34,631 nt of DNA from an uncultured Bacilli bacterium (GCA_934096025.1 CAKOLP010000001.1:1-34631), one strand, 5' to 3'; numbered from the stretch's first letter, positions 24,234-30,323 are shown. The notes: generated by a model from the letters alone, not told the origin. Made by a program: numbers and translations.

Positions 24234-24830
24234 TTAAATATTATAATAAATCTTTTTGAAAATTAAGTTTATATCCGAAAATTTTACATTTGAAGCTGCT
24301 AATCCCCCTAGAACTTCTACATTAACACTGTATTTAGTATCTTCTTCTATTCTTAATAAAATGGTTTGATAAAAATGCATTATTTTGCCCTCGCCTTGTT
24401 CTAGTTTAAAATACAAATCTTTTACAGAAGTTTGGTTTTCATCTTGTAAATAGACTACTCCGCCATGGGCATTATCGGCGCCACTTATAAATGCCGTTAG
24501 GGTTATTTCATATATGCCCGGTTTAATTAAAACTTCATTATCATTTACTATTTCAAAATAAGCACTAGTATTTGGAATTAGCCAAGGCTCATTAATAATT
24601 AAAGCTCCCTCATTTGTGGTATCTAGAAAACTTGTGTAAAACATACTTTCTGTTGAAGCCGGAAAATTAATGGCATCACGACCTGGATCTCCTTTTGGAC
24701 CTTGCTCTCCTTGAAGCCCTATAGGACCTTGTGGGCCAGTCGGACCAACAAGAGTACAGATTAAACCTAAATCGAGTAATTCTTTTCTTAAATTTTGTTT
24801 TTCTTTTATTTTATTACAAAGATTTTGCAT
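24234..24830 (-). CDS. Collagen-like (G-X-Y) protein with beta-rich C-terminal globular domain, BclA-type architecture
   Basis: The collagen stretch is GPTGPQGPIGLQGEQGPKGDPG, preceded by LLDLGLICTLV. There is no signal peptide. The C-terminal domain is paralogous to that of 25468-26400. Confidence 0.8.
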   Translation of the reverse strand: MQNLCNKIKEKQNLRKELLDLGLICTLVGPTGPQGPIGLQGEQGPKGDPGRDAINFPASTESMFYTSFLDTTNEGALIINEPWLIPNTSAYFEIVNDNEVLIKPGIYEITLTAFISGADNAHGGVVYLQDENQTSVKDLYFKLEQGEGKIMHFYQTILLRIEEDTKYSVNVEVLGGLAASNVKFSDINLIFKKIYYNI

Positions 24831-24920
24831 TATATCACCTAATGTTAATATATGTTTTATTTAAAATATTGCCATTTACTTTAATATTATGATTTGATAC
24901 AATTAGAATGGTGAAGATAA

Positions 24921-25460
24921 GTGAATTTATTGGAAGTAGTATTAGTAATCATAATTATTTTAGGGATATTAGCTATTATATATACAGTGCTTTATAATAA
25001 TTTAGTTAGTTATAAGTTTAAAATAGAAAAAGCTGAGGGAATTATAGATGAAAATTTACGAGAAAAATATGATTCTATTTGTATCCTTAATAATATGATT
25101 AAAAAAGTAATTCCTAAGAAAGATTATTTAAAAGAATATATTGATCTTAAAAATAAAAGAATAAGTAATTATGATTTAGATAGAAAGTTAACTGAAGCTT
25201 TTAATATTATTATAGATGTTAAAAATGACTATAATGAATTAGATAATAAAGAATTTAATAATGAAATAAAAAAGATTAATCGTATAAATGTTACTTTAAC
25301 TTCTTGTAAAACTTATTATAATAAGAATACCGGGGAGCTAAATCAATTAATAAAGAAAATACCATCTAATATTGTAGCTAAGATAAACGGCTATAAGATT
25401 AAACCTTTTTTTGACGGGAAAAATATGCAAGATGCTGTTATAGATGACTTTAAGCTTTAA
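24921..25460 (+). CDS. LemA family membrane protein
   Basis: An N-terminal TM helix is followed by YNNLVSYKFKIEKAEGIIDENL. The C-terminal region YYNKNTGELNQLIKKIPSNIVAKINGYKIKPFF is typical of LemA. The start codon is GTG. Confidence 0.8.
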   Translation: MNLLEVVLVIIIILGILAIIYTVLYNNLVSYKFKIEKAEGIIDENLREKYDSICILNNMIKKVIPKKDYLKEYIDLKNKRISNYDLDRKLTEAFNIIIDVKNDYNELDNKEFNNEIKKINRINVTLTSCKTYYNKNTGELNQLIKKIPSNIVAKINGYKIKPFFDGKNMQDAVIDDFKL

Positions 25461-25467
25461 AAAAATC

Positions 25468-26400
25468 CTACATGTGGATTTTTTTTATGAGAAGATTTAT
25501 ATCATTTATTTTAACTTGAGATGAAGCCGCTTCACCAAGTATTCCTGCCATAACTTGTAGAGTTGTTTGTGTATCAAATTCGTGCATTACATTTTGGGAA
25601 AAATGCATTTGTGGAGTGGAACCCCCGGCTAGTTTAAAGGATAAATCCATTATTACTTTATTATTACTATATTTTAAATAAAATATCCCCCCATGAGTGG
25701 CATCTACTTCCTCGATAGCTCCAGAAAATGCTATTTCATACATTCCAGGCTGTACCACTATATCAGTGTTACTAGTTTGTTTGAAGTATTCAGAATCTAT
25801 TGGAATAATATTTATATCTTGAATACGGACATCTCCGGAAATATTTACTTCGGCATAACTAGCAAACAGTATTCCCTCGGTTGTACCTGTAGGCACTGGC
25901 CCCATTTCTCCGGGTTCGCCTTGCACCCCTTGGTCACCTTTTTCCCCTTTTGGTATATTTATTGTTAGGTTATGTGTAAGATTAATGAAGTCATCTTCGA
26001 CATATGCTTTTTCCCCAGGATTTAAAGTATTAGTATCTACTATATTAATTATTTCGCACTCACCGTCTTGCCCATTTGCTCCAGCTGGACCTGGCATGCC
26101 TTGATCTCCCTTATCGCCTTTTTCTCCGGGCATACCTTGGTCTCCTTTTATTGAACCTGTATCTTTCCAAATTCCGTCTTTTTCACTCCATATATATAAA
26201 TTAGAATTAACTAAGTATGCATCACCAGTTTTACCTAAAGGGTGATTTTCTATTAATTCATCTTCACTTTTATAATAATCAATTATGTTTATTCCCTCAC
26301 CTCGAGGGCCTGTTGGGCCAATAATTTGACAACATAAACCTAGATTAAGTAATTCTTGTCTTTTTTGTTGTAGTTTTTTTACTTCTTCACATTTACTCAT
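25468..26400 (-). CDS. Collagen-like protein with BclA-type architecture (two G-X-Y blocks + C-terminal globular domain)
   Basis: I prefer the ATG at 26400 (MSKCEEVKK..., GGAG 8 nt upstream) over the track start at 26439. The collagen blocks are GPTGPRGEG, GDQGMPGEKGDKGDQGMPGPAGANGQDG and GEKGDQGVQGEPGEMGP. Confidence 0.8.
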   Translation of the reverse strand: MSKCEEVKKLQQKRQELLNLGLCCQIIGPTGPRGEGINIIDYYKSEDELIENHPLGKTGDAYLVNSNLYIWSEKDGIWKDTGSIKGDQGMPGEKGDKGDQGMPGPAGANGQDGECEIINIVDTNTLNPGEKAYVEDDFINLTHNLTINIPKGEKGDQGVQGEPGEMGPVPTGTTEGILFASYAEVNISGDVRIQDINIIPIDSEYFKQTSNTDIVVQPGMYEIAFSGAIEEVDATHGGIFYLKYSNNKVIMDLSFKLAGGSTPQMHFSQNVMHEFDTQTTLQVMAGILGEAASSQVKINDINLLIKKIHM

Positions 26401-26559
26401 TAGATCAACTCCATATATTAAAATATGAAAAAAATACATTAAATGTTAAAAACATGGACAAGTATCATATACAAGTCCAAGTTTTGAGAATAAATTATAA
26501 GTGAAAGAAGTTATTAACTTCTTAAATTAACTCTTTATGAGAGAAAGGGATGAATATTA

Positions 26560-26820
26560 ATGAACAACATGTGTAAAGCTGAACAAAAAATTAATGCGTA
26601 TAATAAGGCTAACCCCAATGTTACATTTACTTGTTTTGGACCTACGGGACCTACAGGACCTGCTGGAGCTAGTATCCGTGTTGGTGTTACTACTACGACT
26701 AATCCAGGTACTAATGCCAGTGTTGTTAATGTTGGTACTCCGTCGAATGCTGTTTTAGACTTCTATATACCAGCTGGAGCTACGGGCGCCACTGGACCAA
26801 CCGGACCAACTGCTCGATAA
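26560..26820 (+). CDS. 5' segment of a split collagen-like (BclA-type) gene, truncated by the inserted element
   Basis: The ORF has an RBS and ATG, and contains [11 protein letters not shown] ... GATGATGPTGPTAR. It runs into a TAA supplied by the first bases of the inserted element. Confidence 0.8.
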   Translation: MNNMCKAEQKINAYNKANPNVTFTCFGPTGPTGPAGASIRVGVTTTTNPGTNASVVNVGTPSNAVLDFYIPAGATGATGPTGPTAR

Positions 26821-26830
26821 ATTAAATCAT
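26814..26830. repeat. Left terminal inverted repeat / attL core of the intervening element
   Basis: TCGATAAATTAAATCAT has the reverse complement ATGATTTAATTTATCGA. That matches 29710-29726 at 16 of 17 positions. Confidence 0.85.
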
Positions 26831-28845
26831 ATTATAAAATTCCATATAATTTTTATATTTCTAGTATTTGTTAATTCGTTATATTTTCCTACTATAATTT
26901 TTTCTACAAAAGTTTCAACTAATTCAACAGTTAGTTTATCAAAATTTTTATGTTCTTGAAAAATATTTGTTACTTCATTTTTCTGTTTAGTGATAACAGA
27001 TGTTATTTCATTTTGAATTATTCTTTGTTCAGTTTCCAATTTTTCATATTCTTCTTCATATTTTTTTAAAAGCACTTCAAATTCTTTTAAAGAAAGTATT
27101 TTATTTACACGGTCTAGGTATAAATTTTGAAAATAATTCTCTTTTAACTGCAAATGTTTATTAATATTTTCTAGCTCTTGCTCTAAGTAAGGCAACCTAT
27201 CACTCGAGAAATTATGGCTATTTTGTTCTTTACTTAGTTTATTTATTATTTCTTTATCATAGAATCTACTTAGCATATTGTTTATTTTTTCTAGTATGAA
27301 TTTTTGGAGTGTTTCTTCTTTAACAGACATTTTATTATCACAATTAGACCATTTTGTCTTTTTATCTTTACAACATAAATACCCTAGGCCACTAGAAGTG
27401 TTGCTTCCAGTTTTAATGAATAATTGATTACAATTTGCACAATATACTTTGTTACATAAAGGGTGTATTTTACCTTGGTTGCAGCTTCGAGTTCTATTCG
27501 ATAATCTAACCTGGACTTTATCCCATATGTTTTTGTCTATAATTTTTTCATGGGTATTTTCTTTTCTGATTCTTTTTTCAGCTCCATTTTTTATTAAAGT
27601 ATGGTTTTTATAACTCACTGTAGTTGTTTTAAATTGCACCATATTGCCTGTGTATACTTCATCTGTAAGTATTTTCCTAATAGTGGAACTAGACCATTTA
27701 AATTTTTTTCTTATATTATATGTAAAGTATGAGTTAGTCAATTGTTGATAAGCTTTATTAGCAATATTTATAAAGAGCTTTTTATGTTCTTTATTTTCTT
27801 TTAATTTTATTTCTAGTTGGTAATTAAGAAAATGGGTTCTATCAAGATTTTTAGTATAAGAAATAATTGCTTTAGTATGTTTAGGCAATGTTTCATTTTC
27901 ACTAATGCTTACACAATCTTTTATATTTAGGTTGTCCAATGTTATGTTTTCTTTTGTACTATAATATATTTGGGTTTTATTTGTTTTTCTTAAAATAATA
28001 TCACATTTACTAAATATGCTTGATAAATCTATAAGACTAACTAAATCCTTTAAGATTGCTGGTTCTTTATTAGTAAAATTTATATCTACTATGTAAGTTC
28101 CTGATTGTACAATATAACTATAATTTAAATAATTTTTTAAAACCGGTAACTTAAGTTTACTCCCTTGCATCAACTTATATTCGTATGGACTTAGTATATT
28201 ATCTTTATTCAAATTCTGGGCTATTTGGTCTAGACCTATACCCGATAAATACTCATTATATATTCTTTTAATAATTAAAGAGGGAAAAACATCAATAATT
28301 AAATGATTTTTATTTTCTGGGTCTTTTTTGTATCCATAAGTAGCAAAACTTGATGTTAGCTTTCCCTCTTTTCTTTTAGCCTTTAGTGTTTCGCGAATAT
28401 TTAGTGATGTATCTTCTAGGTACCATTCATCTGTTAAACTAAGAATTTGACTTGTTTTTTTAGTTTCTTTTTTAGTATTATCTATTTTATCCACGACTGT
28501 TATAAAGCGAACTTGCCATTCATGAAACAAATTATGAACATATTTTTCCACTAGTTCCATGTCTCTGGCAAACCTTGCTTGTGTTTTGCATAAAACTATA
28601 TCAATATTTCCGTTTTGACATTCCCTTATCATTTTGTTAAAATCTGGTCTTGAAATGTCTGAACCTGACCAATCTTCATCATTATAAACTTTTATTACAT
28701 TGAATCCTTGTTCTAAAGCATAATTACGTAACATTATTTCTTGATTTTTAATGCTTTCGGATAATTCTTCTTTAGATAATTTGTTCTTGTCTTCATCTGA
28801 TAATCGTAAATATAAAGCTGTTTTATTTCTATATTTAGTCGTCAT
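26827..28845 (-). CDS. Large serine recombinase (resolvase/invertase N-domain + recombinase domain + zinc ribbon + coiled coil)
   Basis: The catalytic region is ALYLRLSDEDK, with LCKTQARFARD downstream. The recombinase domain includes YGYKKDPEN...RIYNEYLSGIGLDQIAQNLN. Cys clusters are CNKVYCANC...CCKDKKTKWSNC. The C-terminus is a long coiled coil. Confidence 0.92.
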   Translation of the reverse strand: MTTKYRNKTALYLRLSDEDKNKLSKEELSESIKNQEIMLRNYALEQGFNVIKVYNDEDWSGSDISRPDFNKMIRECQNGNIDIVLCKTQARFARDMELVEKYVHNLFHEWQVRFITVVDKIDNTKKETKKTSQILSLTDEWYLEDTSLNIRETLKAKRKEGKLTSSFATYGYKKDPENKNHLIIDVFPSLIIKRIYNEYLSGIGLDQIAQNLNKDNILSPYEYKLMQGSKLKLPVLKNYLNYSYIVQSGTYIVDINFTNKEPAILKDLVSLIDLSSIFSKCDIILRKTNKTQIYYSTKENITLDNLNIKDCVSISENETLPKHTKAIISYTKNLDRTHFLNYQLEIKLKENKEHKKLFINIANKAYQQLTNSYFTYNIRKKFKWSSSTIRKILTDEVYTGNMVQFKTTTVSYKNHTLIKNGAEKRIRKENTHEKIIDKNIWDKVQVRLSNRTRSCNQGKIHPLCNKVYCANCNQLFIKTGSNTSSGLGYLCCKDKKTKWSNCDNKMSVKEETLQKFILEKINNMLSRFYDKEIINKLSKEQNSHNFSSDRLPYLEQELENINKHLQLKENYFQNLYLDRVNKILSLKEFEVLLKKYEEEYEKLETEQRIIQNEITSVITKQKNEVTNIFQEHKNFDKLTVELVETFVEKIIVGKYNELTNTRNIKIIWNFII

Positions 28846-28978
28846 ATGATTGCCCCGTTTTATTGTTAATACTATTTATATATTTAAAATACTTTTTATT
28901 AAATATAAGTTTTAAATTATCTATGTTATTATTTGTTTTATATTCTTCGGTGTAATTAAATTTTATTTCTTTTTTCAA
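28835..28978 (-). CDS. Possible 47-aa upstream ORF overlapping the recombinase start
   Basis: This is hand-translated: a TTG start is preceded by AAAGGTGA. The ORF reads (M)KKEIKFNYTEEYKTNNNIDNLKLIFNKKYFKYINSINNKTGQSYDD. Its stop overlaps the recombinase ATG region (TATGACGACTAA). It falls below the track threshold. Confidence 0.25.
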   Translation of the reverse strand: MKKEIKFNYTEEYKTNNNIDNLKLIFNKKYFKYINSINNKTGQSYDD

Positions 28979-29287
28979 AATAATCACCTTTACTAATTTA
29001 ATTTATGAATTGTTATTTTGTTTGGAACTAGCAAAGCTAATTATTTAAAATTTATTTTTGTTAAAAAAATTATATTTAGTTTTAAAATTGACTTATAACA
29101 TAAAATTTAATATATTAGTAATACATTTATATTTTTTATGCATAAACGTTAACTTTCGAGTGACGTTAGGAATAATATACTTGATTGTAATTATTCGAAA
29201 TACTTTATATTAAGTAATTTTTATGTATAAGAATTCTAAAAATAAAAAATATTTTAATTAAATTTCAAAAAGAAAGCTGGGATAAAT

Positions 29288-29710
29288 ATGTTTAAGATTG
29301 CAAAACTACAAAATGTAAATAATGAAAAAGTTAATATCAATACTTGTGGAATAACTGAAATTAAATTTGAAAATGGAAAAAAAGCATATTCTAATGATTA
29401 TAAAGCTTTAAGTTTTCAAGTTAATGGAGATAATTATTCTTTTGAATTTACATTAAATTGTAAACTTGAAGAACTATTAAAAATACCGGAGGATACCCCG
29501 ATAGATTTTAAGGATTACATGACTTCAAGTGAGCTAACGGTTCAAGAAGAATTATATTTTCCCCAAATAGACGCAACAGCTACTCGGTATTTAAAAACGA
29601 AGTTTAGTATTTTTGTAGCATTTTATATTGATCATTGTTTTGATGTTGACGATATTTATAGCGGTATGATTGAATTTAGCTTTAATTTGGCTGATTATTT
29701 AGAAGATTAA
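29288..29710 (+). CDS. Hypothetical 140-aa acidic protein, only non-recombinase cargo of the element
   Basis: The ORF has an RBS (AAAGCTGGGATAAAT-ATG). Its stop abuts the right inverted repeat. I recognised no motif. Confidence 0.65.
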
Positions 29711-29726
29711 TGATTTATTTTATCGA
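29710..29726. repeat. Right terminal inverted repeat / attR core of the intervening element
   Basis: ATGATTTATTTTATCGA pairs with 26814-26830. Confidence 0.85.
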
Positions 29727-30323
29727 GGAACTGGACCTACTGGTCCTACAGGGGCTCAGGGGGCTCAAGGAACAGCTGGGGTACAAGGGCCTCAAGGATT
29801 AGCAGGGCCTACTGGGCCAACGGGACCTACCGGCCCTACTGGGCCAGCAGGACCAGCAGGACCAGCCGGTGCACAAGGGGAACAAGGAGAAGAAGGAACT
29901 CCAGCTATAACAGCGTATTCATATAAATATGAAAATGGAACAGAAGACTATACCTTAACACAAAATACAGCAACTCAAGTGTTATTAAGTGAAGTTGGTT
30001 CAAATAGTAATGTTAATAATGCAGGAACTAATACTTTTACAATTACTACTCCTGGGGTTTACAAAATAGATTATTTCTTCTTAGGGTCTTCCTCAGTGCA
30101 AACTAATTTAACTTTATCAGTTAGACAAAATAACACTGCTATTACGGGTTCAGAGATTGAAAAAGAAGTACAGGCTAGTACTGAAGAAAGTATCAATGGC
30201 TCTGTAGTTGCTAGTTTATCAAATAATGATACTATTGATTTGGCTATATCTTCCACTACTAATGCTACGGTAACACCTGGCGATGATACAAATGCCTATA
30301 TGGTTTTACTAAGAATTGGATAA
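29727..30323 (+). CDS. 3' segment of the split collagen-like gene (G-X-Y repeats + C-terminal globular domain), no start of its own
   Basis: The frame is open from 29703 and reads [57 protein letters not shown], then a beta-rich domain. It is in the same frame as track ORF 29979-30323. No ATG or RBS precedes the repeats. Confidence 0.8.

Follow-up and report, generated by a model that had tools for sequence, protein, structure and literature searches.

A 34,631-nt stretch of DNA from an uncultured Bacilli bacterium (GCA_934096025.1, CAKOLP010000001.1:1-34631; the whole stretch is called the window below) contained a 2,909-bp cassette at 26818-29726, which carried a 672-aa large serine recombinase and interrupted a BclA-type collagen-like gene. 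The cassette is a gene-intervening element of the large serine recombinase type; its form is nearest to that of the gin element, and it has conjugative relatives like Tn5397. Comparison of its attachment (att) sites with those of about 20 related elements indicated that the cassette probably recombines at a self-complementary central CG, so that its sites would be direction-blind. The cassette would then be a minimal integrated element for which both inversion and excision are possible.

Serine recombinase dimers cut with a 2-bp stagger at the dyad centre. In serine integrases, the polarity of a site is set by the non-palindromic central dinucleotide alone. Cutting at the dyad centre has been described for serine recombinase dimers (PMC3556126, PMC5595907). 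Judging from the sites described here, a symmetric crossover dinucleotide as a natural state would be unlike every characterised serine integrase found in the literature consulted.

The tetranucleotide TCGA was present at both junctions of the cassette (26814-26817 and 29723-29726). Between the left end TCGATAAATTAAATCAT (26814-26830) and the reverse-complemented right end ATGATTTATTTTATCGA (29710-29726), 16 of 17 positions were identical, and the 13-nt arms beside TCGA were inverted copies with one mismatch. The attL site, delimited by the inverted repeat and by family comparison, occupied 26794-26830 and consisted of the B arm (26794-26813), TCGA, and the P' arm (26818-26830). The attR site occupied 29710-29746 and consisted of the P arm (29710-29722), TCGA, and the B' arm (29727-29746). 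The predicted crossover CG lay at 26815-26816 in attL and at 29724-29725 in attR. The junction sequences were CAACTGCTCGATAAATTAAATCAT for attL and ATGATTTATTTTATCGAGGAACTGG for attR, and the junction of an inverted cassette was predicted to read CAACTGCTCGATAAAATAAATCAT. The rebuilt 30-bp attP (junction sequence TTATTTTATCGATAAATTAAAT) was self-complementary at 28 of 30 positions, with CG at its centre. In the rebuilt attB (junction sequence CAACTGCTCGAGGAACTGG), the 20-nt arms matched at 13 of 20 positions, or at 15 of 22 once the halves of TCGA were included. An initial annotation, made from the sequence alone, had described the TCGA core, the repeat at the element ends, the near-perfect attP palindrome centred on CG, and the dyad symmetry of attB; recounting reproduced each of these. 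It had also placed the stop codon of the recombinase inside the left repeat and that of ORF140, an open reading frame (ORF) of the cassette, against the right repeat. Both placements were correct: the former is a TGA on the minus strand (26827-26829), and the last base of the latter (29708-29710) is also part of the right arm.

The 37-nt arms 26794-26830 and 29710-29746 formed the longest inverted repeat of the region. When the cassette arm was searched for with at most one mismatch, the two cassette ends were the sole matches in the 1.13-Mb genome. The inverted repeat was considered meaningful because its arms sit exactly at the junctions that rejoin in frame, and because the architecture is conserved in relatives, and not on account of its length. 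Taken alone, the 17-mer inverted repeat is unexceptional for an AT-rich window (29% G+C): inverted 17-mers with at most one mismatch and 0.5-5 kb apart numbered 11 in the window and 1-9 in dinucleotide shuffles.

The 5' half of the split gene (26560-26817, plus strand) comprised 86 codons and ended in ...GPTGPTAR, followed by a TAA stop (26818-26820) that comes from the cassette. The 3' half (29727-30323, plus strand, stop 30321-30323) contained collagen repeats and a BclA_C/C1q-like domain. Removal of 26818-29726 in silico joined the halves in frame into a 284-aa ORF with Collagen and BclA_C domains, as expected of a sporulation-type intervening element, in which precise excision restores the frame. 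The rejoined ORF aligned end to end with intact homologues, which were 260-290 aa long. In other genomes of the genus, the same position, between LemA and a UDG-MYG1-SPOUT-MBL block, was occupied by an intact homologue of about 267 aa. Therefore, the cassette is an insertion into a conserved locus. The two closest protein matches to the rejoined gene were 3' fragments beginning in a P arm.

Relatives of the element were sought in 400 genomes of the same order, and extra flanking DNA was fetched to find both ends and rejoin the flanks. About 25 related recombinases of 640-700 aa were obtained, with 35-66% identity over the full length. In most of them, collagen GGNCC repeats started about 20-45 nt past the recombinase stop. 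Both ends were resolved for five elements: the window cassette (2.9 kb), G251 (3.1 kb), G166 (30.8 kb), G087 (28.4 kb), and G280 (9.2 kb). All five rejoined the collagen reading frame. The bases shared by attL and attR were TCGA, TCGA, TCG, CGA, and CG, respectively, and the only part common to all was CG. Since the crossover must fall in bases shared by attL and attR, TC and GA were excluded as a family-wide crossover and CG remained, provided that the cleavage position in homologous sites is the same for related enzymes.

The symmetry of the sites pointed to the same dinucleotide. All five rebuilt attB sites followed the pattern GGNCC-N7-CG-N7-GGNCC, with a GGNCC exactly 7 bases from CG on either side. 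The two GGNCC motifs were 21 nt apart from start to start, which breaks the 9-nt collagen period and shows up in the protein as an Arg-containing irregularity (...GPT-A/P-R-G/A-T-GPT...). The P and P' arms of the five elements shared the pattern AGAWGAWTTA...AT-CG and matched each other at 13-15 of 18 positions. CG was thus the dyad centre of attP and attB alike. Alternative registers, such as the neighbouring AT, failed to restore the frame when the junction sequences were checked by hand. Two more distant subfamilies also rejoined in frame, one with a TGCA overlap (centre GC, G075) and one with a 2-bp AT overlap (G370b). The three central dinucleotides, CG, GC, and AT, were different and every one was self-complementary, a property expected by chance in one of four cases. 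The initial annotation had reasoned that a crossover at the central CG would leave the sites without polarity; the overlaps of the five relatives and the symmetry of attP and attB support that premise.

A symmetric overhang implies that the orientation of the element should not be fixed, and the relatives agreed with this. The 3' end of the recombinase gene lay next to the 5' half of the target gene, antisense to it, in 7 elements (window, G222, G166, G286, G012, G029, and G370b), and next to the 3' half, co-directional with it, in 15 elements. On a maximum-likelihood tree of 22 recombinases, orientation required at least five changes, at least three of them on well-supported branches, which was no fewer than for shuffled labels. 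Two sister pairs, G029/G273b and G248/G012, had opposite orientations. The window cassette and G251 were inserted in opposite orientations at near-identical attB sites (...C-TCGA-GGAACTGGACC); their target genes are homologous, not positionally orthologous. When the cores of the att sites of Listeria phage A118 integrase were made symmetric by mutation (G1C and G2C), deletions as well as inversions resulted, and orientation was set by nothing but the core (PMC3556126).

Several observations weigh against recombination at CG, or against present mobility of the cassette. The assignment of the crossover to CG draws on an intersection of overlaps over enzymes that are just 55-66% identical, together with the symmetry of the sites. 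Within the small clade of the window cassette and G166, the overlap is TCG, so that only symmetry speaks against TC there. A TA-centred subfamily (G248, G295/G231) had convincing palindromes and flanks that did not rejoin in frame; it was left out of the argument. G147 (L117, G147 C12) read AACAAT-GG-AGCAAC past the recombinase stop, with GG where the others have CG; this may be a mutated, immobilised site, the other end of which was not located. No intact allele of the split orthologue was found among 5.8 billion proteins, where the best full-length match was 55% identical, and integration into a naive site is therefore undocumented.

Both orientations, which the initial annotation took a polarity-free crossover to allow, occurred among the relatives; within the species only one was seen. 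The cassette had the same orientation and identical att sites in four further assemblies of the species from metagenomes, which were at least 99.9% identical. No attB, attP, or inverted junction was present in the consensus sequences of the five near-identical assemblies. A free attP was not found in species-representative genomes, and an unoccupied attB was not found by strict pattern in 401 family genomes. Scans of the cassette's own genome and the collected loci (3.3 Mb) with the protein motif and GGNCC-N7-CG-N7-GGNCC gave no empty attB. A scan of all species genomes for an empty attB was swamped by high-GC organisms and gave no AT-rich match. If attL × attR recombination needs an induced partner, vegetative consensus assemblies should show a stable orientation; seeing one does not prove such a need. 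An apparent 77-bp deletion in the recombinase gene of one same-species contig was a scaffold gap of Ns, not a mutation.

The cassette might be what is left, now inert, of a conjugative element that inactivated one of several collagen-like paralogues, its symmetric sites being fossils and recombination having ceased. It lacks all the transfer genes of its 28-31-kb relatives, clearly decayed copies exist in related species (P arm plus 3' gene half, scrambled remnants, and a Ham1 gene), and neither an intact allele nor an excised form is on record. In addition, the terminal branch of the window recombinase is long (0.51, compared with 0.025 for G166 and 0.12 for G222, its nearest relatives). However, the recombinase ORF is intact and kept 114 of 115 family-invariant columns, including the catalytic motifs (YLRLS and RFARD among them), and the enzyme is probably active despite its long branch because these columns were kept. 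Both att sites are intact, with a single mismatch between the arms, and the small ORF coupled to the recombinase gene is intact and conserved. Both gene halves are still open and rejoin in frame, and the element was identical or nearly so in five samples. An inert remnant is unlikely.

Ordinary serine-integrase sites would offer another explanation, in which the true crossover is the offset asymmetric TC or GA within TCGA, polarity is kept, and only excision can occur. The window alone, with its 4-bp overlap, leaves room for this, as do the TCG of the closest relative with both ends resolved (G166) and the single orientation in all five assemblies of the species. However, G087 shares only CGA and G280 only CG, and TC and GA cannot both serve the family. 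Furthermore, CG is the centre of symmetry of attP and attB, the N7 distance to GGNCC being equal on both sides, and dimers cut at the dyad centre; homologous attB sites also held the window cassette and G251 in opposite orientations. This explanation was judged quite improbable. A programmed, DNA-invertase-like inversion switch with a different output for each orientation is very improbable: the inverted-repeat ends, the symmetric core, and a weaker PHROG DNA-invertase match of the catalytic domain would suit it, but TAA directly follows TCGA in either orientation and gives the gene fragment the same end, there is no alternative fusion partner, the species showed a single orientation in five assemblies, and the relatives are conjugative elements, not switches.

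Recombination of the cassette at its central CG would proceed as follows. Recombinase dimers would bind the P and P' arms, which are nearly identical, and the two collagen arms, which are quasi-symmetric, and would cut with a 2-bp stagger at CG. Since CG is self-complementary, the overhangs would pair in either alignment of the sites. Integration (attP × attB) could put the element in either orientation. Recombination of attL with attR would either excise the element, with exact restoration of the 284-aa gene, or flip it where it lies, and inversion would yield equivalent attL- and attR-like sites. Excision probably requires a partner protein, for which the conserved 50-aa ORF upstream of the recombinase gene would be the best candidate. 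We infer the cleavage at CG, the excision and inversion activity in the source strain, and the role of the small ORF from sequence.

The recombinase gene occupied 26827-28845 on the minus strand, with its stop codon within the P' arm. The protein was identified with Pfam, NCBIfam, and PHROG. Its domains were Resolvase (PF00239, 81 bits), Recombinase (PF07508, 66 bits), and DUF4368 (PF14287, 26.1 bits; cut-off 25), and a recombinase zinc ribbon (PF13408) scored 24.7 bits, slightly below the cut-off of 25.3. The protein matched the PHROG integrase family phrog_95 with E = 2.5e-84. A catalytic domain with a nucleophilic serine motif, the Recombinase and zinc-ribbon domains, and short inverted-repeat att sites (less than about 50 bp) around a centre shared by both partners are all consistent with a large serine recombinase. 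The asymmetric central dinucleotide that usually fixes the orientation of integration appears to be missing from the cassette family.

The small ORF (50 aa, 28835-28987, minus strand) overlapped the start of the recombinase gene by 11 nt. About 20 family members had an ORF of 45-60 aa directly upstream of the recombinase gene; these ORFs were often coupled to it in translation and shared the motif ...Y.EEF.T....T.E.LK.IFNKKYF.YIKR.EN. No Pfam or PHROG family was found for it. By analogy with the 42-aa GirX of gin, the small ORF is a prime candidate for the recombination directionality factor or partner.

ORF140 (29288-29710, plus strand) had no match in Pfam, NCBIfam, or PHROG, and no homologue of it was found in the other elements of the family. 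Homologues with 47-51% identity stood alone upstream of LemA in two cassette-free genomes of the genus (L164, 4103-4522, minus strand; L167, 351-761, minus strand). ORF140 was therefore rejected as a directionality factor of the family. It looks like captured local cargo and is not a conserved family component. The AT-rich divergent intergenic region between the small ORF and ORF140 (28988-29287) gave 28 sites in a promoter scan compared with 24.9 in shuffles, that is, no excess, and terminators likewise showed none.

Family members occupied different collagen-like genes and different positions within them, for example near the N-terminus in G166 and past the N-domain in the window. The element of G166 (contig C13, L253+L111) encoded a VirB4-type ATPase, a MobL relaxase, a VirD4 coupling protein, and TrbL, and on this gene content it is classified as conjugative. 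It also carried a Cna-B-like surface protein, a P-type ATPase, and a cytosine methyltransferase. The element of G087 (contig C7, L251+L113) had a layout like that of G166 and the same att architecture. The window cassette holds just the recombinase gene, the small ORF, and ORF140, and is not itself an integrative conjugative element. Most likely it is a minimal derivative, descended from the conjugative elements in which its closest recombinase relatives are found. A scan of metagenome contigs with the recombinase returned solely distant Clostridia relatives, with at most 46% identity. The presence of the DUF4368 domain and the use of several target genes place the recombinase with the TndX-like clade. 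Large serine recombinases of this clade, marked by DUF4368, are multi-targeting (PMC10083194), in keeping with a family that strikes many collagen genes through one motif.

Other insertions were also observed in these genes. The collagen gene of G251 was interrupted twice (L169, G251 C20, 1341-8816), and the recombinase of the second insert was a different one, about 540 aa long and with about 30% identity. This second type, which has the inverted repeats AAAAGTGGCA and TGCCACTTTT at its ends, was also found in G426 (L168, G426 C2, 4728-8919). Collagen-like genes of the order seem to be hot spots for recombinase elements. Further collagen-like paralogues with the same N-terminal module were present at 24234-26439 in the window and on contigs C57, C60, and C70 of the same genome, and the GGNCC-N7-CG-N7-GGNCC site was absent from all of these. 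In related species, L160 (1000-2640), L161 (880-1060), and L162 contained a fossil attR, consisting of the P arm GATGATTTATTTTATCGA and the 3' gene half. It adjoined scrambled remnants of element genes and a Ham1-like gene, and the 5' gene half was absent from these contigs. Such elements can also die in place.

Among known systems, Tn5397 with its recombinase TndX resembles the cassette in the DUF4368 C-terminal domain, in that close relatives of the window recombinase lie on conjugative and similar large elements, and in the use of several target genes that share a motif. TndX and TnpX exchange strands at an asymmetric GA, whereas the family of the window appears to have self-complementary centres (CG, GC, and AT) and a specific collagen-repeat target. 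The res site I of the Tn3 and gamma-delta resolvases undergoes strand exchange at a central AT, which is self-complementary, like the centre of the cassette sites. In those resolvases, directionality comes from accessory sites and synapse topology, whereas no accessory sites were evident at the cassette. To our knowledge, large serine recombinases do not use accessory sites.

The gin element in gerE of Bacillus cereus ATCC 10987 (recombinase GirC; partner GirX, 42 aa) is likewise a small non-phage cassette with a large serine recombinase, an interrupted gene, and imperfect inverted-repeat att sites, and the host of the window cassette also has sporulation genes. A very small partner protein drives the excision of gin (PMC5595907). 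The predicted cleavage dinucleotide of gin is the asymmetric AA, whereas the centre of the window cassette is the symmetric CG, and the target is gerE in one case and the collagen-repeat DNA of a BclA-type gene in the other. Excision during sporulation has been demonstrated for gin, whereas for the window cassette it is conjectural. The G1C and G2C cores of A118 integrase resemble the cassette in that a symmetric centre synapses productively in either alignment (PMC3556126). Those cores were engineered from a natural GG, whereas in the window family the symmetric core is apparently the natural state. As in SPbeta (SprA/SprB in spsM) and skin (SpoIVCA in sigK), an element with a large serine recombinase splits a gene that precise excision rebuilds (PMC4191935, PMC5499854, PMC5025042). 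However, SPbeta and skin are prophages or prophage-like, whereas the window element is 2.9 kb long with conjugative relatives, and members of its family vary in orientation relative to the target gene.

The BclA_C and collagen domains of the target are typical of exosporium proteins, and a spore-surface role of the BclA-type gene is plausible. The host genome (1.13 Mb, 218 contigs) encodes Spo0A (Spo0A_C; C187:744-1046) and SpoIVA (C7:12630-13340), so this reduced gut lineage appears to retain core sporulation genes. Excision timed to the sporulating mother cell is plausible, if somewhat doubtful, because the host has spo0A and spoIVA. A broader proposal is tentative and rather doubtful: a whole natural lineage of large serine recombinases may have given up the asymmetric centre and used CG, GC, or AT on the two-fold-symmetric DNA of Gly-Pro-Thr repeats. 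Integration would then be direction-blind, activation would lead at random to excision or inversion, and in these gut spore-formers with small genomes minimal copies may be kept as switches that rebuild spore-surface collagen genes in sporulation.

Synthetic-biology applications employing serine integrases rely on six non-palindromic dinucleotide pairs (PMC4111918) and also depend on a fixed orientation of insertion (PMC13586533). If the sites are as described here, the family would provide ready-made orientation-randomising enzymes and a test case for the competition between excision and inversion. A natural family with symmetric cores would show a mobile element to be able to dispense with polarity. 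The cassette also adds collagen-like (BclA-type) genes to those known to be split by recombinase elements, and does so in an uncultured gut lineage with a reduced genome that appears to have kept core sporulation genes.

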